Source of the DNA: Welwitschia mirabilis
Lineage: Eukaryota
Assembly: GCA_051453625.1 (NCBI GenBank)
Contig: JBOZIK010000001.1
Coordinates: 4,555,481-4,593,375 of the forward strand
Direction: 5' to 3'
DNA length: 37,895 nt
In this document: positions 3,171 through 33,750 of the stretch, piece by piece
Numbering within the stretch: position 1 is the stretch's first letter
Layout of the letters: every line of letters starts with the position of its first letter
The notes under the pieces: generated by a model
The model's database searches: none
The model's input: the letters and a program-made list of their open reading frames with translations, nothing else
What the model was told of the DNA's origin: nothing
Program-made: the position numbers and the translations under genes

Positions 3171-3303
3171 CATTTTAAAAAAATGAAAATATGAGCTTTA
3201 TATTATTTCTATATTACCTTGCTTTTCAAGGTGGGTTCATTTTAAAAAAATGAAAATATGAGCTTTATATTATTTCTATATTACCTTGCTTTTCAAGGTG
3301 GGT
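3171..3303. repeat. 67-bp tandem duplication
   Basis: cattttaaaaaaatgaaaatatgagc...ttttcaaggtgggt occurs at 3171 and again at 3238, essentially identical. Confidence 0.9.
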
Positions 3304-5344
3304 CTCACCTTGGAAATAGCCATATATAATGGATGTTGTGTCGGGGGCATGATGAATAGGACGTTCCCGAAATATCTGGTTTATTCATTCTATAATTCAC
3401 GTATGTGTATGGCCTTTTCTTTTTGGGTGCTTATTTTGCTTTTTATAAATTGAAAAACTTTCTCCACGGAACATAAAGGCTTTAGATTACCCATAAGGAA
3501 CTGAGGTCACCACATCCTCGGCGTGGTAGAAGTAGTCCTTTATCTTGACCCCTAATCAGGAGTCATAGGTATGAATCACGTGTATATAGTATGGTTATAG
3601 CGCTACTGGCAAGAGTCATACAGTTATACAACGGTGGGGTGGGGTGCCCTGTCATAACAGCGATACTAGCTCACCTTTCCATTTTCAACTAGCTTATAGA
3701 ATTTGATAAAATCTATACTATTTGACTCTTATGCCTTTCATAGGATATAGGTGTACCATTCAAATAAAGTCATATATAATTAGTAAATGGCAACTAGTAC
3801 CTACATTTAAAGTTACATTTCACATAACACTACATCATCATGTATTAATTTTAATGCTATTAATGCTCTCCATTCTACAGCTTTCGATGTTGTTGTGTTA
3901 GTTTTTTTTTTCAATTTTTATTACAATTTATTATAGAGAATTAAGATATTTTGTGGTTTAACTCTGTAAGAATTTTTTAATAATTGTGATAGATATCTTA
4001 CACTCGTGTATCCTAGTATCTAATGCTAAAGATTAACATTAACATTAATAAACATAAAAGAGATATATTCAAACATGCCATTCTTCCTAATAACTAGAGA
4101 TACAATTTCACTATGTTTCTAATTATTATTTATTTTTTGGCTTTCCATCATCTAATTCCATCATAATTTTGTGACTAGAGTTTATTAATTTTATGGTAAA
4201 AAGCCAATTTATTTAAAAATTTATGCATCATTTATTTAAATATTTTATTACTAATTTGAGTATTAGCTTTACTAATATTTGCATGAAAACATTTTTATTA
4301 CAATAGTCAAAAAAAAATAAGTAACTAGTATTAAATTCTTTTTAAGAAATTCTTTACAAGTTTATTTTTTGAAATAAGCACAGCCAATGTACCAAAAACA
4401 TAAATCTTTATTATCATCATCATCATTAGAGTAATAATGATCTACAAGTTTCCTCTCTAAGAAGAGTTTATTTAAATTTAAATCATTATCCATTAAAACA
4501 TTATTTACATATCCATGATTATCTTGTCACTCAACTTTAACATGACTATGCTCTATTTTTAGGTTTTTGTTTTCATCATAAAGTTTGTAGATGCTATTAT
4601 TAACAAAAATGATGACTGATGCATGGAAACACTATTGTGTTTAACTTGCAACATGGCCATCCTGATATGTAAGTCCCAGTTGGTGGGATTAGCTATGTAC
4701 TACAAAAAAATGTATTATTACGATTCCCTTGTGTGAGACATTTTCTTCCTTACCTTTTCTTCTTTCTTATTCTTTCAATTTTACAATTAGTAATGAATCA
4801 TTTGATTCTTTTTTTTGTAGAATAAGAAATTTTCACAAAATTTACTTTCTTATCTAGTCTACATAATTTCTTTCATCTTTATGAAATATATATGTTTCCT
4901 ATTATCATGGTGTTTTTTTGCTATCTTTTTGTTCATCGCTTCTTTCATTATATTTTTAGCCTGGCATAGCTTATGCTTAAAATATTTAACATTTCTATAA
5001 AGTGGTTAAAGGTATAAATAAACTACTTCTAAGAGCTTAGAAGGGATTTAATGATATAGTTGATTGTTCTTATTTCATGAACTTCTCTTTCATGCTCCCT
5101 AATATCTTTGTGTATGAAGTTTACCTTGCTAATACATTAATATATCCTTTTATTTTATTTCATTCTTAAATTATTTCCTTTGGTTAGCAATATTTTAAGT
5201 ATGAATTTATTAGTTTATCTATATAACTTCTTAAACTTTGTGCACATCGCTTTTGCACATGGCATTTTTCTAATCGTGGCTATGATCATTGGATTACAAA
5301 TAGTAACAATACTACTTTCTTAATCATCTAAGGTAGCTCTATAG

Positions 5345-5350
<6 letters not shown>

Positions 5351-5419
<69 letters not shown>

Positions 5420-5519
5420 NNNNNNNNNNNNNNNNNNNNNNNNNNNNNNNNNNNNNNNNNNNNNNNNNNNNNNNNNNNNNNNNNNNNNNNNNNNNNNNNN
5501 NNNNNNNNNNNNNNNNNNN

Positions 5520-5558
<39 letters not shown>
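5351..5558. repeat. (CT)n microsatellite spanning a 100-N gap
   Basis: Perfect CT repeats on both sides of Ns 5420-5519; true length unknown. Confidence 0.97.
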
Positions 5559-5560
<2 letters not shown>

Positions 5561-6239
5561 CTCGCTCACTCGCTCGCTCACTCTTGCATAGTTGGCTCCC
5601 TTTTTAGCATCTTGTTTATTAAGTAAGATTAAAGTACAACAATACTAATATCATTTCGAATTAAGTAGTTAACCACTTATTTTAGGATGTTTATTTCAAG
5701 AATTTTAAACCTTAGAAGCATCCACAATTCTACTAGGAATTCTTCTTGTAGTAAAGGTCTAAGCGTTGCTATTGCTGTTGTTGATAATTATCCTTAAGGT
5801 CATCATGTTGAGACTTCATGGAAGGACTTAGTATTTCCTCATGAAATTAAGAAGAACAAAATTCTTCTTTAGTTTGTACAAATTTTTAAGTCATGAATTA
5901 ATCTAAGAGAGTTTTTATTAGAATGACTTTAATGCCATGTAATGATTTCAATGAAATCTAAAAATTAAAGAGAAAAATATAAACAGAAAAACTTTAAAAT
6001 TTTTCAAAATTAAATAAAAGATTAAATTAAAGCCTCTTATTTAAAAAGTTTTCTAGACTCTCCTAAATTGCTTATAACATTAAACAATAAGATACTACAT
6101 AGCATACAATTACATGAATGGTTATGTCCTTCCTTAATTTTAGATCATGACTTTTGATCATACTAATTACATGAAACAAAATTCATTATAATAATTTCCT
6201 TATAAAATAATAAAATCATGGTGTTCTTCATAAAATCAT

Positions 6240-8399: not shown

Positions 8400-11300
8400 T
8401 TTAACTTGACTTTAGTCACCATCCAAGGAACTGGCATCATTGTTTAGAGAATTGATACTAACAGCATTCAAAAACATACTAGATCTCACTTTTATGGCAG
8501 TAAAAATCAAATCTCAAATCATTAATTTAAATCAACAAATAAGAATGAAAACCCAAAAACTAGAAAATTAATGATAGGGTTCAACTTGGTTTGCATCCTA
8601 ATTAAGCAATCTTATCCAAATTCAATATACCTTTAAGCTAAAGTGGTGTAAGACTCTAATTTCAATGCTATAAAAGAAGAAATAATCCCAAGAGTTAGTA
8701 ATCATAAATTCAATCTTTGATTCTATAGTTATATTGGATTTGATTTCACATTCAAACATTTACAATCCATACTTAGTTATCCATCTTTTATATTTCTTAT
8801 CCTCCAATACTTTCTTAATGTCTTCTATGACCAATATAAAGGCTTATTTTAACATGGGTTTTTATACCTTTTTTCTCCCTTTGTAAGCATAAGGAGGTGA
8901 TTATTTCATAAGAAAACTCCCTTTCCAAGCCTACTTGTCAATTTTTAAATTATTATTTTTTTCCCATATTTTCATTGTTTGTTAATAAATTTTACTTCTG
9001 GTTGAATGTTTTCTATTTTACTTTCATCATTGATTCATCTATAATAGTATGTAATGCAATAGGACCTCTTGAATGTTCTTATAATAATTGGTGTTAGTTG
9101 ATAATTACATTAATGCTTTGTTAAGATATTTAGATTAAGATGGTTGATGTATTAAATCTATGAGATCTATGATGCTTTTCATTTCCTACATCACACTATG
9201 GGATAATCCATCATTGAACAATGATTATATTGTTTGATATTATAAGTTCTTTCATGCATTTTAATAACATTCAAGGTTTGTAATAAATAATCTATTACAT
9301 AGGCCCATGATGTTCTTATTCTTTAATGATTTAGAATAATAGGTTAAAGAAATGATGACAATTAATATGGTTTCCTTAGTTTAGGATTTCTTTAGATTTT
9401 TTATGGTAGTGACCACTCCCAATGGCTAGGAGGAGAAAGATTCATCCATTATTTCCTCTGTTCTTAAAAGCATTAGGAGGAAAAGGAACCATTCTTTTTT
9501 TTTTAATTTGGTTTAAATAAATGATATAGATGTGAGCATTTAATATCTCTTGTAGTCTCTGTGGAACAACAAAAATTAGGATTGCCTTATGCTACGACTC
9601 ACAAGCCTTTTTTGTATCTAAACTATTATCCTCTCCCTTGGCAGCTACTGCATATCTTTTGCTTTTGTTGAGTACTATTGTGGAATATATTTTATAGCAC
9701 AAGGAACATTGTACGGTTTTTCTTGAATTTTATTTGTTAAGGTGTAGTATTTTTCATTCAAAGATAAGAAAATTAAAAAAAACATAATAATAAGATATAA
9801 CTCTCTATTAAATATGATTAAAAATAATAAACGATAGCATAGTTGGTTCAACCCATATTTATAAGTCGAGAGCTTTAATCTCTTATATTTGAATCCTATG
9901 GTATTTAGGTTGGCTTGTGGTTTATATGCATGTATTCAATGCACATATGAGTGTAGGATTCAATGTCTTGGGTATGGATCATAGTTGAGATCCGGAAATT
10001 TGGTGGTTAACTCCCAAACTAGCAAGATCATCATGGGTTTTTACCTAGTTAAGAAAACCAATAACTCTAGCAAGTGAAATATGATTTCTCTTGAAAGAGT
10101 AAAAAAAGAAATAGACCAAACAACATAATAAATCAGGGGCAATGTTGAACCTAAACTTCTAATGACTCTCTTTCATCCTTACAAGTACAACCATTATGAT
10201 TAATACAACAAATAATTGCAATTATCTTTAAGGCCTCATGATACACTAATTAAGTCATCCAAAGGTTCAAACCCATGACATCCTTAATGGAGGATGAACG
10301 TCTCACTAGTAAGACTATCATTCCATTAGCAAAAAAACACAATAAATTATTATTTATGGCATAAAGGCATAATAATACAATTCAATGGTAAGAAGTGTAA
10401 AATTTCATTATGGTTCAAGTAATAAAGCATGACCTTAAAAAGGAATTCAAAGGTCCTTATAAGGATTGTTCTAATCATAGGAATAAGGCAAATGCATTTA
10501 GATTCAATATACTTTAAGAGTATTTATATAAATATTATCTAGGTAAATATTATAGCTTAATGGAATAACTCCATATACACCAACTAATATTATTACCCCT
10601 TCTTTACAAAACTATCTTTGAAAATTTTACTAAATCATATAAGATTCATGTGAAATTCTCGAATGGTAAAAGTGATATGCTACTGTTGAAAAGAAAGGGG
10701 AAATGCTTGCACTTATAATTTGTAATATACTATTTTTATACTCTAATTACATTATTTACAGGTATATGAATATACTAGAGGCCTTGAACAAAAACCAAAG
10801 TATTGCATCCTATTTTTTTAAAAAGGGGAACTAAAAAGATTAACATTGAATAGTGTAGGAGCTCTCAACTATAAGATATGAAATGTAATTTGCTTACTTG
10901 GAAAATGAAGGATTTATTTGAATCTTACGTTAATGCTTGCAATATCCATATCTAATGAAAGAGAAGAGAAACCACCATAATAATAACAACAACAACAACA
11001 ATAATAAAGAGAACTAATGAAAATATAATAATAAAGAAAGCTAGACGTTAGTTGAATTAAAAGGGGGTATTGTGTTATGATTTAATAAGATAATCAATAC
11101 AATCACAAGTAATATCATACCTGATGCAACTTCTTATGTACAAGTAATAATGGATAATTATTTATATCTATTCATAATTATTGCTTATGATACTTATTCA
11201 AGTCATAATCTCAAAAACATTATTGAATCAAGTATCAATGTTGTGCCCCTTTTGTAGAAGTTAACGAATGGATTATGCTATTTAATTCATTCATAATACA

Positions 11301-15809: not shown

Positions 15810-16000
15810 TTTTTAGAAAACTGTATCACTCACTCCACTAAGTCACTAGTTTGCTTAACCGAATGAAAACCAATTGATGACCCACCAAGTGCACCTTGAA
15901 TACATGGGTAGAACCACAAGCCAACCTGCACAATATAAGAGTCAGACCTGGAAACTTGAATCTCACCAATTATAACTATGGGTTGAACCAACTACACTAT
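15810..16000 (-). mobile_element. tRNA-derived SINE-like element, copy 2 (internally shorter)
   Basis: Minus strand begins atagtgtagttggttcaacc (A-box-like TAGTGTAGTTGG), with B-box-like ggtctgactct at 15948-15938. Homologous to 9835-10110 but lacks about 70 bp of the middle. Confidence 0.6.
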
Positions 16001-16594: not shown

Positions 16595-17156
16595 CTAGCT
16601 TTACTGTCAAATTATAATTCATTACATCCATGCAGAATGGGGTATCTCCCATTAAACACCAAGTATTGTTTGGACCAACTGAGGTATTTCCAATACATAA
16701 ATAGGATCTAAAACTATGAGGTGGCTTTCTGCTTGAATGCCATTGCCTCGTCCATCAATGTCCAGATATTCATAAGACAATGCAGAGAATCATCTCTGCG
16801 TTTAACCAACAAGCATCATTATCCACAGTTCACTTTAAGCATAGAGTTGCAAACTTTTTATAACAAGCTGTCTAGAGTTGCAAACTTTTTTATAACAAGT
16901 TGTCTAACAATAGCCTCGATATACTTCTAATGTGGCCATAAGAACCACTAGGGGATGTGAACTCACCTCCGTACCCAACATGTAAGGGTCCAAAATTCTT
17001 ATTTGACATTAATCAATAACTAGGTAGAAACATCTAGCTTTACTGTCAAATTATAATTCGTTACATCCATGCAGAATGGGGTATCTCCCATTAAAGACCA
17101 AGGATTGTTTGGACCAACTGAGTTATTTCCAATACATAAATAGGATCTAAAACTAT
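16595..17156. repeat. 123-bp dispersed direct repeat (16595-16717 and 17034-17156)
   Basis: Both copies run ctagctttactgtcaaattataattc...ataggatctaaaactat with 4 mismatches; the first copy is flanked by an 18-bp direct repeat. Confidence 0.95.
16842..16903. repeat. 31-bp tandem duplication
   Basis: tagagttgcaaactttttataacaag(c/t)tgtc twice. Confidence 0.9.
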
Positions 17157-18772: not shown

Positions 18773-19229
18773 CTGTAGTGATGACATGTATAATCACAAT
18801 AAGAGGTATACAGAAAGGTAGAAAATATATACTTACATAAGCCACCAGATCTAACAAACCAGGGTAGAAGATTTATGAAATAGGAATAAAGCTCAAAATT
18901 AATACCCTTCTTACTAGGAAAAAAAACTTCTAGTAGAAATACTAACAAGTTCAAACATGTCCAATATTAGGTTAATAGATGTAAAGTGATACAAAGAATC
19001 AGAAATTGGGTAAAAAGTAAAAACACAAACAGAAAATACAACACACAAGGACAGAAGGATTTAGATGGTAAAGCACTTTCAACGCCCCTGAACTAAGAAC
19101 AACTAATTCATTTTAAAGACCAGGGGATAGGTGAGGTAGTGGCTCTGACAACTAGGAATAGTAATTCTATTCACTGTAGAAAGTGAATATCATACAGTGT
19201 ATCTCTGACACAAAGTCTTCAAACCAACA

Positions 19230-20000
19230 TTGCATTTTAATAATGCAAATGTTCATGGTGATTTTCTCACATTTTGTTTGTATTTTCTGCTTCTATAGTA
19301 GCTACAGTCACTAGAAACCTCCACCTACAATGGCCACTTGAATCAATATTGCCACCAATGTGTGAAGCAAATATTCATTGGGATCAACCATATACAGCCA
19401 GTTCATTCTAATTATTGGAATTAAATCAGATTTATTTTATGGTAAAAAAATATTTCATTTTAGAAAACAAAAAATATTTCATTTTAGAAAACAACCCCAA
19501 TTCATCTGCATTAGAAGAGAGAAGGCAAAGTGGATCCAAAATAAGCTGTTTAGCATTAAAAAATTAATTCACACTTCTGTCTTGATTCACTCATGTATAC
19601 CAACAACTTTCATAGCATCTTTTGTCTGCTGTAAATGCTTTCCTAAGTAAAAGGTGTGTCTTATCATTGTCAAATAATAACTGACCATTTCTGGTAAAAT
19701 CATTCAAATATTTTGAATGTTGATATTTAAGTCATCTAGATGGTTAACCGTTTTTAATGCTTCATGAAACATGCCATTCTCTGTTGTTTGCGTCAATATT
19801 GTCAATCGCCACAGATGCCAAATAATACATCCTTGGTAGTGAGCAAAATCCATCATTTGCCTAAAAAGATTTGGTAAAGTTAACAACCAGTGCTTCCACA
19901 TTGGTTGCATCCACAAGGATATTCCCAACCACCATAATATATCAGAAAAAGGCTTTCCTGATGCAGGGCAAGAAAAACTGTATTTTTTGCCCTACATTTT
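19230..20000 (-). mobile_element. L1 LINE 3' part (zf-RVT tail and RNase H-like domain)
   Basis: Minus strand FSCPASGKPFSDILWWLGISLW...IIWHLWR (19980-19800) and HIGGNIDSSG...TIEAE (~19365-19285) fit plant L1 zf-RVT and RNase H motifs. Continues across the copia insertion at 32109. Confidence 0.65.
19445..19492. repeat. 24-bp tandem duplication
   Basis: aaaaaatatttcattttagaaaac twice. Confidence 0.9.
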
Positions 20001-20300
20001 TGTTACAAATCTAATAACAAGAAAGTAGTAAAACAAAATGGAACACCAGGCACACAAAGGAACAACACAGAATTTATGTGGTTCGGCCTCTTTTTACCGT
20101 ACATCCACGAGAAGCAATGCAAAGCTCTATTGATTGATTAGGAGCAAATGTGTTCCAGATACAACAAATAACCCTTTAACATTTTATATAGCCTTAGGGT
20201 TAGGGTTACAAGTCATACCCCTTTTACAACTTTAAATAGGGGTCAATGTTGAAACATAACATTTCAACATAAACAATATATTTTGCTTCACATATCAACA
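20001..20300 (-). repeat. Copia 3' LTR
   Basis: TGTTACA...TCAACA termini; adjoined by aaacttcccctcac (minus strand GTGAGGGGAAGTTT, the PPT) at 20301-20314. Confidence 0.9.
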
Positions 20301-20593
20301 AAACTTCCCCTCACAAGTAGGAAAGCCGGTGTGAGGTCTAAGCATTACTGCTACACCCTTTCGGGTTTTCCGAGAATAATGCTACCAAGGAGCTTACTAA
20401 GGGCAAATGCCTCGCACTGAATAACCCCTAACTGAACTCCTGAAACCCTTGTGAGGCCTAGCACATGGAAGACACGCCAAATCAAGGTGAGAAACGCACC
20501 TCCACCTATCGCCAAGCACTCCAAAGACAAACCCTAGCAGCTCTGCTCCTCTTTCCTCTGCTCTTAGATCTTCTTTATCTTTATTTTTTAATC

Positions 20594-21160
20594 ATGTATG
20601 ACTGGCACATAATTAAAAGGCTTTAGATCTCTTAGGATATTTAAAAAAATAATTATTTTATTCATCACTCATTGGATAGTTACAAAGTTCGTCATGAGGC
20701 TTTGATCTGGCTCCTCTACCAAAGGAAATTTCGGACTGATGCTAGAGAGCTGGCTTGGAGAGATATTGCTAGGGGCCCTATGCGATTAGCGCCTGCTGTG
20801 GATTCCCCACAGTATACTGAGAGTGAAGAGGAGTGTGGCCTCCCTACGCCAACTGGAAGAGCTTCAGACGCACCAAAAGAGTCTGAACACGAACAAAAAG
20901 AAGATACAGAGCAGCAAATGGAGGAACATCCGGATTATGGCAAAGAAGAGGAAGCAATGGAACCAATTCCTATGGCAAAAATTCGCTCTGAAACCTATGG
21001 CCCTAATGATTATCGTTTTGTTGTTAATCATTATGGATATGCTAGCCTTGAACCTATGTCTGCTTGGAAGTGGGAATCCGAGCTTACCAAATTAGATGCT
21101 TGGGTATGGGGATTTGAATACCAGAGCGATCATTACTGTGCTTGGAAATCCACCTTCTAA
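20594..21160 (+). pseudogene. Antisense ORF of unknown function in the copia 3' region (open 20672-21160)
   Basis: 162 open codons with an acidic centre and a Trp/Tyr-rich C-terminus. The same frame extends to ATG 20594 through three stops (TAG, TAG, TAA). Confidence 0.5.
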
Positions 21161-23366
21161 ATCACTCTACTGTTGGTTTTAGTTGTCTAATATATTTATC
21201 ATTTCTCAAAAAAAAAGAATATTATTTTATGTTAAAACAACAACATCAGACTTGTTAGTGTCAATCAGTGACCTATACTTCACAGCACATCTCAGGAGGT
21301 CTATGCGGACCCTAGACTTATTGCTCATCACGACAATCAGACATATCATCATTGCCTCATGTCCTGTATTATGAGGTCTAATTGACATCCTCATAGTTCA
21401 AGGGCATGATCTACATGTTCACAGCCCCATCTGTTTCTGCTAGACTCTGCCAATTGCCCTATAGGACATCTTAGCAAGATCTGAAGACTTCTCATGTTAT
21501 TTTGTAGAGTCAACCCCTCCAGAATCTAAATCTAAAGTCTTCTCTCTCTTTATGAGCTTTTACTTGCAACACATGAACATAACAAATAGGTAATGCTCTA
21601 ACATTGTAGGTTAAATGGTCTACATTCCTGAAGAAGCAGACATATTGTATCATCCAATTCCACTGTCTATGTGAGAACAGCCTTCATACAAGTTGTGGCC
21701 ATATAGTGCAGTCGGGTACATTAAATTGATCCATATGTTTTCATGATCAGTGACAAAAAAAAAAATGTGTATAACAGTAATTCTCCTGTTTTACTTATCA
21801 TTTTTGTAAATTCGTAAATTCCACCCACATGATACTCCATATCAATGACATAGTTATAAAGTAGCAACATTTGGCTCCATACGTAGGACTCTAAAAAATA
21901 AGGTTGAGTCTGTTTAAATTCCAGTTAGCTAAGTTGCTTAGGTGTCATGTCTAGTTGGAGTTTGGTTGAAAGAAATGAAGAGGTTTCGCTTTCCTTTGTC
22001 ATTGCTTTATGATAAGTTGCTAGCACACATTTGTCAGCTTTAGTTATTATAATCTAACATTGATTTTTGTTGGACCAGTCAGATCAGATGAAAAATTATG
22101 ATGAAGGTTGACTGCTCTACAGTGTCTTGAGTTGGAATCCCTTATGCAATCCCTAGATTGCACACTCAGNNNNNNNNNNCAATTTAAAAATGCATCTCTA
22201 TAAATTGATGTCACAAGTACACAGGAGGGTTAATATTCACTGTAACAGGTTTTTAGTTCCTTCTCAATGACCTAGATTCTCCCGTGATTGTTACCACATC
22301 ATTGATATTTTCCACATTAAACCTCTACTATGTGTTAGCCTTTACACTGATTTCTTCATTTTGGATTATCTCTGCAATATCTCACTTCTGATCTCCCAGT
22401 GAATGCATGTCACACTAGAGAAGGGAATTTGCAGATTAACTACGATCCATTGGTGTCAGAGCTTAGTGAATGGACTTGACATAAGGCAAGGATTCTGGTT
22501 CTACTATCTACCAGTTTGTCAGGCCTTAGATATGACCATTGCCTTTACACTCGTAGGGATATCAGGCAGGTAATCAATGTTAGAAAGAGTCTCACTTCTG
22601 TTGGACGACAATATGATGTGGGTTGTCATTCTATCCAGCAACAGTACATGAAAGACTAACAAAGGATCTATAGCTTTTTTAGACATCAAATACCTAAGCA
22701 TAGAGAGTTAAGGCTCAAACACTGAACAACAATAACACAAGAAAGGGTCTGTCCGTCTGTGTTGAAATCAAAAGGCCCTACTAAGTGTTCTACTACTGAG
22801 ATTGTGTGACAAAGTCATACCTATACTATAAGAAAGCAATACAGGGTAGTTTTCTAAGAGAGTCTCAAGGCCCCTGATTTGTTCAGCTGATTGGCAATTA
22901 CTTAAAGAAATCTTTTAGATAAAATCAGACAGTTTCACTGTATTTAAAAACTGTATATCTACAGCCAAAAATGTTTAACAACTTAGCATTCCTAAATTAG
23001 GTGCCTGCTTACAAACAATTAAAGTGAACTCCACATTCTATTATTTAAAGTCAGTACAGATTTGTCAAAACGACACGAAAAGGGAACTACACTTCTGAGA
23101 ACACTAATGGATTGGCATGAAGCAGAAACAGAGCCATTCTCCATCAGTTGTCAATACTTTATTTAAGAATGGTGAAGTTGTTTTAGAATATGGCTGCAAA
23201 ATGGTAACACACTTAGTCAATAGATGGCCTAGTGGTACTTCAGATTGGCACATTCCAGAACAGCAATGGAGTGCATCAGTTCACATACAATCACCACAGG
23301 AAGTTTAACTGTGAAGCATATATCTTGCTGGCTGAAAAGGAACAAGTCTGACTGTTCTGGCAATAA

Positions 23367-23750
23367 TGAAGATTGTACCACCTGTGGTTTGCAGGGATTC
23401 CAAAACAAGACACAGAAACATGAAAATGGGTAAGTGTTTGGGAACATGTATTTTTAGGATATGCCTAAGGAATAGAAAATATGCATATTTAAAAAAACAC
23501 GATTTAATATTTTTATGATTGAAATGGTTTTGTATCAATGTATCATATATGTCAAACTTAACAAAGATCATGAAGTGTTCCCTTTGGGTTGTGATGAAGA
23601 TCTTAGTGCCCATGCTTTGCGAACATTCTGAAACAAGACACAGAAACATGGAAATGAATTTGCAAACATGTTTGGGGATACTTGGTGCTTTTAAAAAATG
23701 TATATTTATTACTTTTAATATTTTTATGATTAAAATTATTTTATATTCAA
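23367..23750. repeat. Diverged ~227-bp tandem duplication, MITE/hAT-end-like
   Basis: Both units (from 23367 and 23594) contain atgaagat...aaacaagacacagaaacatg...ttaatattttt?atgatt. Confidence 0.55.
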
Positions 23751-25169
23751 TGTGCACCGAGGTGTGGGCTTCAACATCTTGGGTATGGTTCACAGGTGAG
23801 ACTTGGCTAGCTGCCAAGCCAGAGGTGGGGACAATGGATGAGTTCTCACTCAGCAAAGCAAACCAACGACACAGGCGCTCTGTTTTTAAAGGGTGACATG
23901 TCCCCCAATAAATATTTTAGGAAAAAGTCAGCATTGAGGTAACTTTTTCAGACGATTTTTTCAAAATGAGTTTTCTGCCCGACATTTTCAGAGAAAGCTG
24001 CAACATTTTTGGGACAAGTAATCATAAAAACGCGTGAAAGAAAGAAACACGCCACAGAATTACAGATACACACGTGAAAGAAGGAAATCAACAGAGATAC
24101 GGGAGAAACACACCAGAAAGGCAAAAACACAGACAGGATCACAGAAACAAATGCGCCAATAGGAGGTGTGGTCATTAAGCCAATCTTCAATATCAATGTA
24201 ATATTATAATTGAATTTGTTTTCATTTTGTTTTTCATTTGCTTGTTAATACTTAGTACGTTGTAGTCTGTTGCAGTTCTATCGATCATTTCTCTTAATAA
24301 TCACAACTTCCTTGTAGACATCTAGAACATGTTTTGGTGTTACAGATTGATCCTTCATTGTGCTTCCTTTTGAAGGCTATTTTGGCTAGAAAGAACTGTC
24401 AATAAAAGTAATCATATCAATATATAACAAATGCTTAGCAAATGCAATTCCAGTTATGTAATTGAAGAACCAATTATGTAGCTTGCACCCATAGAAATTT
24501 CTATTGAAGCGTCTTCCATTGATAATCTTAAAACAAGCAAAAACTAAGAACAGTTTAGTGTGTATAACTGTCCACTTTCACAACATAATAAGCATTGTGC
24601 AATTAACGCTCACTCCAAACAATTTTCTTCATACTATGTATTATGCTACTTATCGCTAGTATTTATTTTCTCAGGGGAACTTCAATTTCAATTTTCAATA
24701 ATGTTTGCCTTTTATTTATACTTTACATTTTGTAAATTTAATTTATTATATTTCATTGTAAATCCCAAATCAACATGCAACATTCTTGGGCATCGCACAT
24801 GTCCTAACATCTTAGACATAGGCACATGCTATTTGTAAGTCTGACTCTGAGTTTAGTTTGTTATTTCGATGGTCTCAAGTTTCTGCCCAAACATATAGGT
24901 TGAAGGGTTAAGGGGGAATTTAAAAGCCATAATCTTAAACATAGAAATGGTTAAAATGAAAAGATAAATAATAATAAAAATTACAGCTAAAAAAATGAAA
25001 TATAATGTTTGGTTTGCCATAAGCCCTTAACATTCTTCTTTTTTGAAAAATTGATTAACTTTGTCACATTCTACTATTTAATATTTTTAGTTATACAATA
25101 CATATTTACTTTTGAAGAAAAATGTTTTATTTCCAGTTTCCTATTTTAGAATAATTCTCTTATAGAATA

Positions 25170-26275
25170 TGTTACAAGGATCAGCCCTACAAGGGGGTGA
25201 ATAGGGTAATAATAAGTGTGAAACAAACTCAAAAATAAACCTGCATTAAAATACCATTCAAATAAAAACAAGCAGATAAATAGATTCAACAATACACCAG
25301 AACTCATGTGGATATTTTTGTTATTAGCGGTTTGTAACCACTCTTCACCTAACAGACCAGGTGTCTTCAGCTCGATTCTATTATTCCACTATATGGTTTT
25401 CCGGAGTCACCTTACAACCTTTTCACAGTCAAGGGTTTTTAGGGCAAAACCAAAAACTTTGCAGAGAAGCAGAAGAGGAATGTCAGATGTGCAAAGCTGC
25501 ACTAAGTCACTCCAGGTTCAACTCAAGAAGAATAGCTCCTTAAGCTTGATGGTAGAATGCTGGCTTGAAGAAAATAACTACAGATCAGACAGACAAAGCT
25601 TAGCCCTAAAGGCTTTCTACAACCAGAGTGTTTTTGCACCAGAGAAAATCTTACAATTGAAGGAACAAACTTACAAGCAAGGTTTCAAGTTATTTAAGAT
25701 ACTGGGGTTTCTAACAGATTTGTAATCAATGTGTGATCTCCAGTCCCCTACACTTTTCTTCAAAATAAGTGAAGTCCGCTAATGTTCACAAAGTTCAAAT
25801 GATTAGTTATTCAATCAGCCTCACACAATATTCAGTCAACCTGATGAGTATGTTACAATCAATGTAAAAGGATTTGGTCGCCCTCACAAGAGATTCAGTC
25901 GCCTTAAAAGATTCAGTTTGCAAGTCCAAAAGACAGCTGGTTTGGATCCAATCGACCTCAAAAAATGTGAGGTTGCTCTCAAAAACTCCGGTCACCCTCA
26001 GAAAATGTCTGGTCACCCTCAGAAGAATAGGTTTTGCTGAAAGAAAATCAGCTGAATTGAGTCCAATCGGCCTCATAAAAATGAGGTTGCCCATAGCTAG
26101 GTTACCCTTAGAAATTGTCCAGTCGCCCTCAGAACAAGCAGCTTTTGACAGGATGAAGCGAAAACTTTAAGTTGCCCTTAGCAAACACCTACCCAGCCTA
26201 ACCTAAAACACAACTTAGAAAAACACCAAAAAACACTTTTGAAAAGGGGCATCAATGAAAAAACTATTTCCAACA
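25170..26275 (-). mobile_element. Solo LTR (~1.1 kb), SIRE/Sirevirus-like
   Basis: TGTTAC...CCAACA termini; flanks gaata/aaata (4 of 5). agggggtgaatagg near the left end, as seen at copia/SIRE LTR ends; repeated gtcgccct/ggtcaccctcagaa motifs; no PBS or PPT adjacent. Confidence 0.75.
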
Positions 26276-26964
26276 AAATAATGCTTCATTTCCTTTCTTC
26301 CCCACATTTTCTATTGCTATTGCTTTTAACAGGATTCATTTCTCTTAAATCTTGACGATGGTTTACCCTAAAGATAAAGCTTAGCAAGGGTGTAATCCTG
26401 GAACAAAGGCAATAGAACTTATTTATAGGTTTCATGGTATGAGCATTTTCAGAGGAGTTATGCGATTGAAATATCACATTGCAGGCATTACAGGGCATGA
26501 TATTTGTAAGTGTCCTGATCCAAGATATGAAATCGATAAAGAAATCATGCAAGAGTGCATGGCAATGCTTGCAGACAAGGATAGAAAAAGATGTGCTTCT
26601 CAACAAGCAAAGGAAATGATTGCAAAACGAAATCGAGAACAATTTCATTCACATTCGAATGTTCCAGGTGTGGGGTCTTCTCTAGCTGTTGAAGATACTA
26701 CAAGCTATACAAGGACATTTTATGCCCCTCCTCAGATTCAAAAAAGGGATAAAGAGCAAATAGATCTTAGCTTTAACCATGCAAGGCTCAAACAAACAAA
26801 AGTCCCAGTGGTGGGAGAATGGGAAGTTCATCTTCTCCTTCGTTACCACAAAACAAATTGCATAACACTTTACAGATGAAGAAATTGATACTTAAAACCA
26901 AAAACAGAATGGTTGAATTTTAGTATTTTCGCATGTTGCCTCTTAATCCTTTTCGTTCTACTAG

Positions 26965-27525
26965 TGTTTGGTCCTTTACCATCAACCCAAAAAGCCATAA
27001 CTTAGGTGAAAATTAGAGCCCTTTATATTTACCCATTTGTCGGGCTGAGCATGGGGAGCAGATACCCAACAATCTCCCCTCGATCCAAATGCCTAGTGCT
27101 CACATAAAGCAAGAAGCCAGTAGGAAGACTCGAACCCAAGTCCAACCAACAATCATGGCTTTGATACCAATCGTTATGAATCTTTACTATAAATCAATAT
27201 TAAAGAAAACGAAACAGGAAGCACAAGAACAACACACATAGATTTATAAGAAAAACCACAGGAAGCAGATAGAGCTCTTAATCTTATTCAAGGAGCAAAA
27301 AAATCACCATACAAAACAAACCCACAAGCAACCTTTAAATAGGTTTAGGGTTACAAGCCAAGACAATATAGAAAGCTCCTCCCTCCCTTCGTTTTTTTCC
27401 TTTTATTTTAAATACCCCAAGGAGTTAAAACATAACATACTTTTACAACATTACAAAAAGGGGGTTAATGTTAAAACGTGACATTACAATATAAATAACA
27501 CAAATTTGGCTTCACTTTTGCAAAA
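26965..27525 (-). mobile_element. TRIM-like mini LTR element with two unrelated LTRs
   Basis: 107-bp LTR 26965-27071 (TGTTTGG...CCCAACA); PPT AGGGGAGAT at 27080-27072; ~98-bp internal domain; PBS TGGTATCAAAGCC at 27169-27157; ~354-bp copia-type LTR 27172-27525; TSD actag/gctag. Confidence 0.8.
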
Positions 27526-27861
27526 GCTAGCATGTTAAAAGAGATGTGTAATGCAATTTACAAAGTAGGGCCTAATTTCAACCCCTAAGATATACTGAGA
27601 TGAGAAGAAAATTGCTTGATGAAGTTAAATCTCACGTCGATGGCATGCTAAGAAACCACCATAAAAAATGGCATGAAAAAGGTTAATGTGTGATGGTTGG
27701 GAAGACAAGAGAGGCAAAACTTTGTTGAATTTTTTGGTTGCTTTGCATCTGCAATCATGTTTGTATAGAGCATGGATGCATCAAAGCACGTGAAAAATGC
27801 GGAATACTAATTTGAAGTCATTAAAGAATGCAGTAAAGAGATTGGTAGATAGAATGTGGTT

Positions 27862-27905
27862 CAAGTCAAACTTTTAAGCTATACAAGTCAAACTTTTAAG
27901 CTATA
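27862..27905. repeat. 22-bp tandem duplication
   Basis: caagtcaaacttttaagctata twice. Confidence 0.9.
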
Positions 27906-30097
27906 CAATTTTATGACTATTATTTAATTTGTAAGAAGGCATGTTGGCTATTTAGCAATTGGTATCTATTTTATTTTGACTCATTGTTATTTCTTAATTT
28001 AAATTAGGTTTTCACAAACGAAGCAATCCCTTTGTTGAGGCTGGTCAAATTATCATGACTTGCCTATCCAACAATTTATTGGATACCTTTTGTTGCACAT
28101 TGCCTTGATTTCCTTCTGGAAGACATAAGACAAATTCAATGGATCAGAATGGTAACAATCATCCTTACTTCTTTAAACTTTAAGTATATTACTTTTATGG
28201 CATTTGTGTAGTAGAATATTAATAATGTCAATATTGTGGACTTCTGGCCTATCACTTCATGTCTCAATGTATTTGCTAATTAACTTGTCTCCTTTTTTGA
28301 GGTTGTGAGAGATGCAAAAATTATCTCCAGGTGTACCTAGTTACATCAACATGTTCATCATTACTTCTTGCAATTTTCAAATGGCAATGAAATCATCAAG
28401 CCTTCTATAATAAGGTTTGCCACTAAATTTATTCTACCAAATTCCTTATCCAAAAGCAAAAGTGCTTTGATGAACATGTTCGTTAGTTAAAAAATGGAGA
28501 GATCCTAAAAAATTCAATAGGATTAGGTGACTTCCTTTAGCAAAGATTCCCAAAAGAATAGTGTTTGATGAAACAAATTTTTAGTTTGGTGTAGATGATA
28601 TTTTATGCGTAAGTGATTCCAATTTCCAACTCTATAGTTTATACTTTTAGATTTTTCACATTGACATATTAAGCAAGTTGATGTAATGTTTTTTATTTTG
28701 TTTGTACAAATCACTGAATCTTTAGTAAAGGTGTTACATATCGTAGATAGTGAGGGACCTTCCATGGGATTCATTTATGATGTGATGGAGAAGACTAGAA
28801 GTCAAGTTGAGACTTAGATGCTTGCAAGCAAACAAGATTTAGACTAGGCACACATATCCTCTCTTCTGCAACAAAAATGGAATGAACATTTGCATACAGA
28901 TTTGCATGCTACAGCACATGTTCTAAATACAAAAATTGGTTTTCAAAAACCACTTCTATATCATCTTCATCTTGCCACAAGAATCACCCATGTTTTTTAC
29001 AATATGGTAACCAATCCATGAAAGTCGTTATAGCTCATAAATAAGCTACACAAATATGGAAAGAAAGATTGCCCAACACTCATGATGGCCTCAAGTGAAT
29101 GCGAAGTTAATGAATGTACATCAGGTAAACTTTATGGTCTACAATTAACAGAATGTACTCTTACATAGAAGTTGGTAATTTTTTACTTTAGTAGTGTAGC
29201 GCTGTTCCCTAAGATTCAATGATTTTACTTTGGTTATTTATTATTCTAGATGATTGGTAGCTTGCTTTTGGAACAAAAGTGTCAAATTTACAGCTAGCCA
29301 TTAAATATTAACCCAACCCTGCACTACATCCAGTAAGTTGGTTGCACGTTTGCAATTTTGCACATAGAATTTTCTTGTGTTCTCATATAATTTAAGTGTT
29401 TTTGTGCATTTTGGAGTTATTTTATACATCATTAATTATTGTCTTTTTCATGTTGATTTAGGGTGTGAAAGGAATTGCAGTGTATTTGAATATATTCACT
29501 CTAAAAAATGTAACAGGCTCATTACAGAGAAATTAAATGATCTTGTATCTTTGCATTGCAATCTGAAGTTAATACACAAAGATATCGTGAGGGCTATTGG
29601 TGCCATCAAAGACAATGAGCATGATGACGTAGATTTTGGAAATGTTCATATGCTTTTGAGCCTCTTTATGATTGGGTTCTTGCCACTATTGATGATGACC
29701 ACATGCACACATTCATGCATCTACTATTGATGGAGCTTCTACTTCTCATGTACATGCACAGGAGGAAACAGAGGAAGTAGAATTTCCTCCAAATGAAGAT
29801 CTTTGTGTTTTGCCTCTTCTTAATGCACCTCCATTTCAGGCTAAAACATCTCATCCACAACACCACTCTTCACAACCCTCATATGTTGGCTAATGATTCT
29901 AATGATGATAATTCCAATGAGGAGGAGGAGAAGGAAATGGCTAGAGGTGCAAAGATTACTCCCAATCATGATGACTTATTCACTAATGAAGAACTTTNNN
30001 NNNNNNNNNNNNNNNNNNNNNNNNNNNNNNNNNNNNNNNNNNNNNNNNNNNNNNNNNNNNNNNNNNNNNNNNNNNNNNNNNNNNNNNNNNNNNNNNN

Positions 30098-31747
30098 TTG
30101 GAAGTAAACTCACCTCCATTATCTGTCATCAATTCTTTAATTTTACAACCAGTTTCATTCTCAACTCTGGCCTTCAAAATTCTAAATGTCTGAAAAGCTT
30201 CATCTTTTGATTTTAAAGGGTACAGCCATAACCTTTTAGAAAAATCGTCAACAAAAGTAATGAAATATACAGCACCTCCCAAAGAGGTGTGTCCAATGGG
30301 GCCAACTAAATTAGAATGAATTAATTCTAATCTATATTGTTTTAAACGCTTACTATTTCTTTTAAAGGTCACTCTCCTAATTTTACCAATCACACAATTT
30401 GAACAGAAATCAAAAGAGGGGGAAACTTTAAGTAATAAACCTTTAGAAATAAGTACCTGTAGACCTGTTTCGCTCAGATGCCCAAGACGCTTGTGCCACG
30501 TACCTACTGTAACTTCTCCACTGGCCACACAAGTTAAATTAACAAGATTAACAGAACGTAAAACATACACGGTACTTTCTCTACTTCCATAGGCAATCAT
30601 TAATGCTCCTTCACTGATTTTCCAAGAACTACTATCAAACATGGTTATAAAACCACTATCACTAAGCCGAATAGCTGAGATCAGATTCTTTGCCAAACCT
30701 AGAACATGTCTAACATTGGCCAAAGTGATGGTCTGAGGACAATCGTTCCTTTTTGATCTTATATTTACGATCATCTCCCAACCAAACACGACACATCTGT
30801 GATAGGTTCATAAGAAGAAAGAATGCTTTACTTGGGCAAACATGAAATAAGACACTAGTATCAATTGTCTAAACCTCTGAAATTGAGTACGCAAAGACAT
30901 GAGCGTCTCCTCCCTGCGTTAACAGAGTAATGTCAGCTTCACTATCCAAAGGTGAAGCAAAATTGGACGCGTCCTCGTTCGTTTCATCCCTCTTTTCATG
31001 TTTGTCTTTAAGCTTCTAGCAATCTTTTACAATATGCCCTTTCTTCTTGCAGTAATGGCAGACAACGTCCCTGCCTTCGGACCTAGCTATGCTCTTGCTT
31101 CTACTATGTCCTCCCTTAGATTGCGAACGTCCTCTATAAGTTGCCAAAGCCTCTCCTTGTTTCTCACTGCTACATGGACCAAATGCATTCTGCTTTTCTA
31201 TATCCAATAACATTACTATAAGTTCTTCAAGTGCTAAACTATTCTTACCAGCAGCTCTGAGAAAATGAAATTAGAATAGAGTAATGTACATCGCCTCTGT
31301 AAATGTGATCCCAAGATCACCAATTTGCGAAAATATGTTTTACATCTCATCCAAATGACTCAAAAATCTTGTTCCTTCTTTCATCTTTGTAGCGAAAGCT
31401 TGGCTAAGGGCCACATACCTATTTATCAAAGAAGGCTAGTCGTACCACTCTTTCAACTTTTGCCAAAGTGCCTACGTAGTCAGATTTCTTGAATGAGCCT
31501 TCAAAATGCTATTGCTGAGACAAAGGCCAATGAAAGACAAGGCATTGGAATTTATCTCGTCCCATTTGGCATCTGGCATGAAGGCCAACCAAGTCGTATC
31601 ATCCATCTTCAAATCTGCCTTTGCTTATGCTTTCGTCTTTAGACCAAGTTTACATCCCTTTTGCTGCAGAATGTCTTCTATCAAGATTTTCCACACACCC
31701 CAATATTCTGGGCCCCAAAGTCTGTCTGTTGTTTGCAAACACTTCAT
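30098..31747 (-). pseudogene. Copia gag-pol pseudogene (Gag, Zn knuckle, protease, GAG-pre-integrase, integrase core), cut by gap
   Basis: ATG at 31747; ALWQKLKEWY; CHYCKKKGHIVKDC knuckle; *TIDTSVLFHVC protease; WHKRLGHLSE; ELIHSNLVGP (the catalytic Asp of HSD appears as Asn); LMTDNGGEFTS. Several in-frame stops in gag. Confidence 0.92.
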
Positions 31748-31799
31748 TTGAAACTCTAGCACTTCGATCTAAACTTGCTAAGAAAGTACTTTGAACCTC

Positions 31800-31811
31800 G
31801 CTCTGATACCA
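31800..31811 (-). other. Primer-binding site (tRNA-iMet)
   Basis: gctctgatacca is TGGTATCAGAGC on the minus strand, 2 bp from the 5' LTR. Confidence 0.93.
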
Positions 31812-31813
31812 CT

Positions 31814-32103
31814 TATTACAAATCTAACAAGAAGAAAGTACTAAAACAAAATGAAACAACATGCACACAAAAGGAACAACACAAAATTCACACGGTTCGG
31901 GCTCTTTTTACCCTACGTCCACGAGAAGCGATGCAGAGCTCTATTGATTGATTAGGAGCAAATGTATTCCAGATACAACAAACAACCCTCTAACAAGTTT
32001 ATATAGCCTTAGGGTTAGGGCTACAAGCCAATCTTACAACTTTAAATAGGAGTCAATGTTAACATTTCAACATAAATAGTATATTTGGCTTCACATATCA
32101 ACA
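31814..32103 (-). repeat. Copia 5' LTR
   Basis: Aligns end to end with 20001-20300 (roughly 90% by eye plus a few indels); tattaca...tcaaca termini. Confidence 0.9.
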
Positions 32104-32108
32104 ATTTT

Positions 32109-33750
32109 AGTAGGGTCAAGCATCCAATGTAAGACACTTGTGATAAGAAATGAAGTTTCTATAGTTAAATATCATGGTTAAATAAATAGAATGGCAAGGA
32201 TTGAGGTGAAAAGTGCATTACCTTAGAAAGTGAAACCAATTGAAATTACCTCTTGCCCCGATGTTCTATAAGTTTCAAAGCTGCCTATGCAGCCCTAAAT
32301 TACGCTCTACCATGAATTCCCTGGCAGTTTCATTCTGCACTACAGAAACTTCACCTGAACTCCAAAGAATTCACAGGTGCACTGTGCATTTGGAAACATC
32401 AAAGACTACACAAGATAGATAGCCAACACCTCTCGAAAATGCAGGCTAAATAACAAAGAACAAGAATCTCATGAAGAAGTTTATACATCTTCCCTAACAC
32501 TGGTAATGTGTTTCTTAACAGATAACCATCTACAAAAACCATCATATAACCACCATTGAATCCATTTTTGCCTCTGAAACAAAGACACAATGAAATACTG
32601 CTAAAAACCAAAGCAAGCAACCACCCCAAGAAAGATTAGCATCACCAATCTCTGCTATGTAGAACTTGCCTTTCAGCAGTTGCCTTTCTGCTTTGCATGC
32701 CACTGGTATAATTAACTTCACCTTATCAACAGTACTCATTGCCGAGTGCCAACATCGGCCTTTTATTGAGCCTAGAGTCATCTACCACCTGATGCACTGC
32801 ATCATTCCACGTCAGACTCCATGCCTTGGAAAACTTCACAATATCCTGTCAAGTGAATATCTACTCCAAGTCACCAACAAATTTTGTAACTCCTCAATGG
32901 CATGAATAGGCATCCTGTTTACCTTGTCATCATGAATAGGCATGAATACATACACTTTTTCAGATCAGTTAAACTCCATTTCTATTTTGGATGTTATAAA
33001 TGACAACAACTATTGCCTTCCATCCACATATTTCTGTATTCACTCCAGCCAATCACAGCCTTTCCAAAACATAAGAAAATCTAGACAATCTATCCAAAAT
33101 TTTATTCCCATCTTTAATAACAATCAGCACATTCATCATCTCCCTGCTAGTTTCCAAGAACTAATGAATTTGCCATGACACTACTTGCATTGGATCTCTC
33201 AAGAAATTCAAAAAAAGACTAGGTTTGCACCTACCTCAAATTCACTCACATGGGACACAGAAGAAGTCATACGATGTTCCATTTTCACTTAAAACCATAG
33301 GTGATCTAAGTTCCCTCATTTGCTTCACTTAGGATCAATGAATTTCTTCAAGTATACAACTTGGTTGTATCATTTTGCCATCAGTTCTTATCTCCTTACA
33401 AATGAAGGACTCCTTGATGATGTTTTCTGTCATGATGAACATGTACATCTCCTGTAAGAATTCAGTTAGGATACGTATCATTTCAATCCTGATCCGTGCA
33501 CAAACTGCTTGCCATTCTAGACTATTCAATTTCCCTGAAATGATCTGTTGGATCACTCTCTGAAAGCAGTTTTCTGTCTCAAATTTCTAGTGAAAATCAA
33601 TAAGTTTGAAGATTACAACTTTGCTAGTTTCTGATCAATCATTGTTGGGTTCATAGGGGAACCATCTTTTAGCTGACAATTGAAAGCCTTATCCAGGGCA
33701 TATCCATACCATAGGGTTCACAATACCGTTTCTTTACTTTCTCCAAGAAC
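32109..33750 (-). mobile_element. L1 LINE reverse transcriptase remnant (5' part of the LINE split by the copia)
   Basis: Minus-strand remnants NGTSYDFF (~33280; cf. VNG...FF.S.RG.RQG), GDD..VLIVI (~33140; cf. FADDVLIF) and an GLEVN-like segment (~33045). Many frameshifts. Confidence 0.6.

Follow-up and report, generated by a model that had tools for sequence, protein, structure and literature searches.

A single-copy retroelement insertion in Welwitschia mirabilis with a Ty1-copia-family LTR at one end and a TRIM-like body and LTR at the other

The stretch of Welwitschia mirabilis DNA analyzed here (37,895 nt; assembly GCA_051453625.1, contig JBOZIK010000001.1, positions 4,555,481 to 4,593,375; hereafter the window) holds a nest of transposable elements, the innermost of which is a short retroelement with two unlike long terminal repeats (LTRs). 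This 561-bp unit lies on the minus strand (27525→26965), lacks coding capacity and carries all the signals of an LTR retroelement. It sits in a decayed hAT-type transposase gene that is itself lodged in an old Ty1-copia element. Read in its own orientation, the unit begins with a complete 354-bp 5' LTR (27172–27525), followed by a spacer, AT (27170–27171), and a primer-binding site (PBS), TGGTATCAAAGC (27169–27158). The PBS agrees at 11 of 12 positions with the canonical copia/iMet PBS TGGTATCAGAGC, which the neighboring copia carries, and we take it to be of the tRNA-Met (iMet) type. The internal sequence (27157–27072, 86 bp) consists of a non-coding domain (27082–27157) that runs into a purine run, GAGGGGAGAT. 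This polypurine tract (PPT; 27072–27081), recognizable from the sequence and from reads of the family, directly abuts the 5' side of the 3' LTR, a 107-bp repeat of the form TGTTGGG...CAAACA (26965–27071); the distance between the two LTRs is 100 bp. The unit is bounded by the pentamers ACTAG on the left (26960–26964) and GCTAG on the right (27526–27530), which we assign to the target-site duplication. They are alike at four of five positions, and by our arithmetic the chance probability of a match this good or better is 0.016. The original prediction, made from the letters alone, had described the same layout of a ~354-bp LTR, an iMet PBS, a non-coding interior, a PPT and a 107-bp LTR between actag and gctag, and its coordinates and features agree with ours. 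The TG..CA ends that it gave hold for the 107-bp LTR; in this copy the 354-bp LTR starts with TT and ends with CG, and reads of its family carry the canonical letters at both places.

Most of these features are those of a terminal-repeat retrotransposon in miniature (TRIM): a tRNA-Met-type PBS beside the 5' LTR, a PPT beside the 3' LTR, a short non-coding interior (about 100–300 bp in TRIMs) and a 5-bp duplication. The copy departs from a TRIM in its terminal repeats, which in TRIMs are alike and roughly 100–250 bp long but here are unrelated, at 354 and 107 bp. Pfam assigned no family to the three stop-free open reading frames (ORFs) of the unit (27017–27238, 27032–27193 and 27242–27478), Rfam returned 0 matches at E up to 1 for 26500–28000, and ARAGORN found 0 tRNA genes in 26800–27700. 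The tRNA-like look of the internal stretch GGGTTCGAGTC received no support from either RNA search.

A chimeric reading requires that the junctions of the unit be real, and sequencing data back them. A search of sequencing runs yielded 18, of which 13 hold part of 26600–27900 and eight hold at least half of its words; the holders come from four studies and bear two organism labels. Four runs (X1, X7, X9 and X14) were placed on 26850–27650 at 85% likeness. X14 consists of raw reads, about 1/100 of which were sampled, and 2358 of its 2433 placed reads lie only partly on the stretch, so that depths taken from it are rough. The placement lists 15 of 95 joints and 24 of 1140 rows of loose ends, and our statements on joints and ends refer to those listed. 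A 347-nt contig from X9 (record 17) matches 26933–27279 with 0 differences. It extends 32 letters into the flank beyond the left junction and also spans the border between the 107-bp LTR and the PPT and that between the PBS and the 354-bp LTR. Both the sample and the study of X9 differ from those of the best holder. Record 9 of X7, which carries the other organism label, covers 27018–27245, again with 0 differences. X1 covers 27019–27245 with 1 difference, and its record 7 spans the right junction (27409–27650, 0 differences); X1 is possibly the source sample and was left out as independent support. Altogether, contigs that are exact across all the joins come from three samples and both organism labels. 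Their depth (3.7–5.0) equals that of contigs bearing unique flank, which makes the exact chimera single-copy; it is not an assembly artefact.

The flanks of the unit belong to one gene. The hAT-type transposase gene (26300–29990, plus strand) has accumulated many stop codons and frame changes, and the unit splits it between 26964 and 27531. DUF659 matches lie on the plus strand at about 27682–27867 and 28041–28154, and the hAT reading frame quoted in the original prediction is found on this strand on both sides of the unit. The hAT family is multi-copy, with a raw-read depth of up to 108 beside the unit versus 4.3 in the lowest flank bin, and its paralogous copies supply empty sites. Three types of joint skip the unit. 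One (26960→27527, skipping 566 nt) is present in six X14 reads, one X7 contig and one X9 contig and in 0 of X1; the next (26962→27531, skipping 568 nt with two letters between) in 15 X14 reads, two X1 contigs and three X9 contigs and in 0 of X7; and the last (26960→27531, skipping 570 nt with four letters between) in four X14 reads, one X1 contig, two X7 contigs and two X9 contigs. All three have a net loss of 566 bp, the 561 bp of the unit plus 5 bp, and one pentamer is kept at the joint. Three more joints that skip 586–645 nt, with intervening letters that are not known, are represented by one contig each, and we give them no reading.

Protein comparison leads to the same site. An exhaustive protein search with the right hAT flank identified an intact-looking relative of 128 amino acids (P0001; E = 1.5e-15, 44% identity); a word-based homologue search with the same flank gave no match, and P0002, a long repetitive protein that matched over 37 residues, was dropped as a hAT relative. 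In tblastn alignments residues 1–11 of P0001 fall on 26933–26965 and residue 12 resumes at 27532, with no residue lost or gained; where either alignment runs a few residues into the unit, those residues do not match. Thus, as originally predicted, removal of the unit with one copy of the duplication restores the hAT frame. The net 566-bp loss in paralogous copies and the contiguity of P0001 across the site argue that the unit entered in one piece, and insertion of a hetero-LTR cDNA by one integrase event is well supported.

To compare the two LTRs with each other, we aligned them locally and scored the result against shuffled sequences. The best alignment of the 107-bp and 354-bp LTRs scores 17, a value that 238 of 500 shuffles attain (shuffle mean 16.8 ± 2.4, z = 0.08); on the reverse strand z is 0.78. 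The 107-bp LTR also shows nothing above chance when compared with the copia LTRs of the window (z = -0.6). The two LTRs of the unit are unrelated, as the original prediction held, and neither is a diverged or deleted version of the other.

The 354-bp LTR behaves differently in comparisons with both LTRs of the surrounding copia element. Five collinear segments, all in the same orientation, align in blastn, the best with 76% identity over 76 nt (E = 6e-9). In MAFFT alignments with the copia LTRs at 20001–20301 and about 31810–32103, 181 of 325 and 183 of 324 columns are identical, and the best-conserved parts of the 354-bp LTR are its start, GTGAAGCCAAA..., and its end, ...GATT..TAAC.A followed by TGGTATCA. 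Local alignments give z values of 9.9 and 15.2, which 0 of 500 shuffles reach in either case. Motifs that the original prediction had listed as common to these LTRs are present and in the same order, in agreement with blastn, MAFFT and the shuffles. Judged by these alignments, the LTRs of the surrounding Ty1-copia element and the 354-bp LTR are related but diverged, the latter representing one subfamily within the copia LTR family found in the window.

Reads that leave the unit at its internal borders indicate where its parts come from. The 107-bp LTR belongs to an abundant short-LTR, TRIM-like family: its core has a raw-read depth of 339–533, versus 4.3 in the lowest flank bin. A loose end of reads lies at 26990, and the 107-bp LTR of the unit, like the 354-bp LTR, is complete to the termini of its family. 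At the loose end 27079, 124 reads pass from the 107-bp LTR into the PPT and interior of the unit with few substitutions (agreement 0.87). In 287 X14 reads the final 24 nt of the 107-bp LTR differ slightly and are followed by ATTGGT (mean agreement 0.81); 29, 24 and 31 contigs from the three remaining runs give similar consensuses at this LTR end. ATTGGT corresponds to the spacer plus the first four letters of the PBS, and the identical six letters follow the 354-bp LTR in the unit. These patterns would fit an ordinary TRIM with the order 107-bp LTR, AT, PBS, interior, PPT, 107-bp LTR. The family could be assigned to no named TRIM family, and none of five motifs occurs in one supplementary text file of PMC4717578, although the TRIM library of that paper may contain a name for it; exact patterns of 27 nt from the 107-bp LTR and 22 nt from the internal domain gave 0 matches each in metagenome contigs.

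The 354-bp subfamily, whose LTR starts ...GCAAAAGTGAAGCC, is likewise represented by many copies in the reads and has its own purine tract upstream. At the loose end 27523, 192 X14 reads continue with the two canonical LTR-start letters and a purine-tract-like stretch (agreement 0.55) unlike the PPT of the unit. At the loose end 27173, reached by 30 X1 and 13 X9 contigs, the preceding letters are unrelated (agreement 0.38–0.44). Since reads and contigs diverge at both places, both ends of the 354-bp LTR in the unit are true family termini, belonging to elements of their own with a different body. At position 27172, 59 of 63 reads carry the letter that gives the canonical CA end. The TT start and CG end of the unit copy are later substitutions, in keeping with an old insertion, and the mismatch in the duplication fits this too. 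In other members of the 354-bp LTR family a 22-nt stretch replaces 99 nt (27362–27460; 74 X14 reads, 37 per orientation column); the 99-nt stretch holds a purine-rich run, GGAAAAAAACGAAGGGAGGGAGG (minus strand), and the difference is an indel polymorphism internal to the LTR. As a whole, the read evidence fits a TRIM origin of the interior and the 107-bp LTR and a separate element family as the source of the 354-bp LTR.

How can two complete but unlike LTRs come to bound one insertion? In ordinary reverse transcription both LTRs are made from one U3, one R and one U5, and copy-choice between co-packaged RNAs changes the parentage of parts and still yields two identical LTRs, according to the scheme outlined in PMC6894440. 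We reason from this scheme that copy-choice during minus-strand synthesis cannot have produced the unlike LTRs of the unit. The second strand transfer is described as guided by PBS complementarity (PMC6894440, PMC3187697). Two unlike, complete LTRs therefore call for either a transfer of plus-strand strong-stop DNA between molecules or a joining of cDNAs at the PBS before integration. The chimera junction of the unit lies at the border between the LTR and the spacer-PBS, the position expected from strand transfer and cDNA joining alike. Both of these pre-integration routes require that a copia-family element and the TRIM were reverse-transcribed together and integrated by one enzyme.

With moderate confidence we read the unit as one dead-end insertion, whose cDNA already had two different LTRs before it integrated into the hAT pseudogene, and most likely acquired them by plus-strand strong-stop transfer. 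The 3' two-fifths of the unit (PBS, interior, PPT and 107-bp LTR) would come from an abundant, miniature, non-coding TRIM-like element and the 5' LTR from a member of the Ty1-copia LTR family. RNAs of the two would have been packed into one virus-like particle, where both were reverse-transcribed. Copia plus-strand strong-stop DNA (U3-R-U5 plus the tRNA-copied PBS) could then have paired with the complementary PBS that terminates the TRIM minus strand at its 3' end, displacing the TRIM's own strong-stop DNA from its role in the second transfer. Once both strands were extended, the resulting linear DNA would carry the copia LTR at its left end and the TRIM LTR at its right; its outer ends, both of the TGTTG...AACA type, would be usable by one integrase, and insertion would generate a 5-bp duplication. 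Because the two R regions of the product differ, the first strand jump would be blocked and the unit unable to propagate.

Co-packaging, strand transfer and the role of the copia lineage as supplier of the TRIM's machinery are what we infer from this arrangement. At roughly even odds, the unit is a natural fossil of an intermolecular plus-strand strong-stop transfer between two unrelated, co-packaged elements, in which case it would be direct physical evidence that a particular Ty1-copia lineage packages, reverse-transcribes and integrates this TRIM family. Of the chimera proposed in the original prediction, the hetero-LTR unit, its insertion as a single piece and the TRIM-like nature of the interior and 107-bp LTR stand; the strong-stop route and the mobilizing partner can reasonably be inferred from a single, old, single-copy fossil, which does not amount to a demonstration.

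Several points weigh against the strand-transfer reading. In retroviruses, plus-strand transfer is reportedly intramolecular in nearly all cases. Copia gag and integrase are carried in the window only by a relative whose LTRs are ~56% identical to the 354-bp LTR, and that the exact 354-bp subfamily sits on an autonomous element would be an assumption. A whole TRIM with two 107-bp LTRs was seen in none of the reads and contigs, the ordinary TRIM structure being based on a six-letter consensus continuation. The raw-read depth of the internal domain is 58–64, about a ninth to a fifth of that of the 107-bp LTR core, and many copies of the LTR may therefore be solo or joined to diverged interiors. 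The target-site duplication is imperfect, and diverged further copies of the chimera could have escaped the joints and loose ends listed. Finally, the sequence by itself does not separate strand transfer from cDNA joining.

Joining of two cDNAs before integration, without strand transfer, could have occurred by host recombination or annealing at the ~14–20 nt of shared spacer and PBS; in a variant, one integrase complex would pair the left end of one cDNA with the right end of the other, and repair at the PBS would close the gap. Such a joining accounts equally for the complete termini, the 5-bp duplication, the net 566 bp and the junction at the LTR/spacer-PBS border, and it dispenses with an intermolecular plus-strand transfer. 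It takes more steps, however, namely two full cDNAs and a precise host repair, and the PBS bears no scar or filler. We prefer strand transfer, which adds no further step and would leave no scar, and consider joining rather unlikely. A longer history is harder to accept. If a TRIM had inserted first and a copia-family element had then landed exactly on its 5' flanking pentamer and duplicated it, unequal recombination between the two PBSs could have deleted the body and 3' LTR of the copia together with the 5' LTR of the TRIM, leaving the parts in the order observed and between the observed pentamers. Nested insertions are frequent here, as the position of the unit in hAT in copia illustrates, and a duplication matching at four of five positions suits such a history. 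Yet the second insertion would have to strike one particular base pair and be followed by recombination over only ~14 nt of identity, and neither a second duplication nor a remnant of the TRIM 5' LTR is present. We estimate that such coincidences are expected far below once per genome and judge two insertions plus a deletion quite improbable. An ectopic crossover is excluded by flanks that form one continuous gene with a matched duplication, and for gene conversion there is no homology on the outer side.

The remaining explanations deny that two families met. The 107-bp repeat might be a shortened or decayed 354-bp LTR, or the whole unit might be a repeated composite propagating in that form: the two LTRs start alike, with TGTTG (TTTTG in this copy of the longer one), and end in AACA or AACG, and LTR families here are variable, the replacement of 99 nt by 22 nt being an example. 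Against this stand the chance-level similarity of the two LTRs, the abundance of the 107-bp sequence as a family with its own termini, and the single-copy depth of the exact chimera, and we regard the idea as very improbable. That the assembly mistakenly joined two repeats is hardly credible; the region is rich in repeats and the window contains three runs of N, but exact short-read contigs cover every join (X9 record 17, X7 record 9 and X1 records 1 and 7), including other samples and another organism label, and the flanks form one continuous hAT gene.

The unit can be set beside several known systems. With TRIMs as described in PMC4717578 it has in common its tiny size, lack of coding capacity, tRNA-Met PBS, PPT, ~100-bp interior, ~100-bp LTR and 5-bp duplication; TRIMs there have two like repeats, whereas here a 354-bp copia-family LTR replaces the 5' repeat. 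Chimeric miniature elements have been reported in a 2026 survey of sugar beet, where two TRIM-08 elements have LTRs donated by TRIM-01 or TRIM-05 and template switching or recombination is invoked (PMC13570524). These resemble the unit in placing LTRs of one family on the body of another miniature element. As they are presented in that survey, the donors are other TRIMs and the donated LTRs are additional ones, whereas in Welwitschia the donor is of the copia family and insertion in a single event is documented.

Three-LTR complexes (Sabot and Schulman, 2007; PMC1950507) are another aberrant product of co-packaged RNAs that entered in one event with a 5-bp duplication; the duplication was taken to imply one integration and abnormal template switching was proposed. 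In the account given there, like elements are fused, the outer LTRs are highly similar and the first (minus-strand) jump is concerned. Because its outer LTRs are unrelated, the unit needs instead the second (plus-strand) transfer or a joining of cDNAs. LTR swapping between SARE and SNRE of soybean was reportedly described by Du et al. in 2010. Drost and Sanchez (2019) list inter-family recombinants made during reverse transcription (PMC6894440), which, like the unit, involve cross-packaging and recombination and are taken as a sign of partnership between autonomous and non-autonomous elements. The recombinants listed have two identical mosaic LTRs and can found lineages; the unit has two different LTRs and should not replicate. 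Open-access full-text searches, which cannot prove absence, turned up no naturally occurring hetero-LTR insertion that links a TRIM to a copia LTR and has a matched duplication. Chimeric miniature elements and inter-element recombinants are already known as a class, of which a TRIM/copia hetero-LTR copy with a documented single insertion is a variant.

The Ty1-copia element around the hAT gene (20001–32103, minus strand) spans 12.1 kb, has a canonical PBS and is bounded by a perfect 5-bp duplication, AAAAT/AAAAT. Its LTRs are ~80% identical over the aligned stretch (290 of 362 columns, short flanks included). Pfam analysis of 98 stop-free ORFs from 18917–33175 gave matches in only two, and copia gag and the start of integrase are visible only in read-through frames. 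These frames lie on the minus strand at 30100–31800 and contain Retrotran_gag_2 (E = 4e-13), zf-CCHC, Pol_BBD, gag_pre-integrs (E = 6e-13) and rve (E = 1e-8); gag precedes integrase, the Ty1-copia order, and the element is classified accordingly. No reverse transcriptase was found in 20302–26300. Most of the copia body is replaced or interrupted, by the hAT gene among other sequences. A 100-N assembly gap (29998–30097) separates the hAT gene from the copia integrase at the border of the nesting. Among 75 weak pairs of inverted repeats in 24000–31500 none is convincing as the termini of the hAT element, and an 8-bp duplication was likewise not found in this interval.

Elsewhere in the window, a long (CT)n microsatellite with a 100-N gap inside (5420–5519) is followed by GCTC-rich short repeats (5306–5600 in all), and at 3171–3303 a 66-nt unit is perfectly duplicated in tandem, with a period of 67 nt. 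An 89-nt inverted repeat (9834–9922 and 15912–16000; 74% complementary, arms 5989 nt apart) may mark the ends of a DNA transposon. The segment 9933–9990 resembles 23744–23801 (76%). A 123-nt direct repeat (16595–16717 and 17034–17156; 97% identical, spacing 439 nt) may represent the terminal repeats of a very small element.

The helper element is not known for most TRIM families, and partnerships are usually guessed from sequence similarity. Gao et al. (2016) count 278 of 289 TRIM subfamilies without a relative that encodes a retrotransposase, and the rice TRIM partner identified in their account is a Ty1-copia element (PMC4717578). In the sugar beet survey, 61 of 115 non-autonomous families have no traceable partner (PMC13570524). 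A hetero-LTR copy that entered in one integration ties two families by a common replication event instead of by resemblance. The unit also bears on whether the second strand transfer can be intermolecular in plant copia particles, although a single old copy proves neither this nor the identity of the helper. Any assembly can be screened for copies of this kind, the criteria being unlike LTRs with complete termini around a PBS...PPT body, a 5-bp duplication that matches, and a paralogous or allelic site that is empty. If our reading is true, helpers of orphan TRIMs could be assigned quite generally by screening genomes for hetero-LTR copies that have matched duplications.

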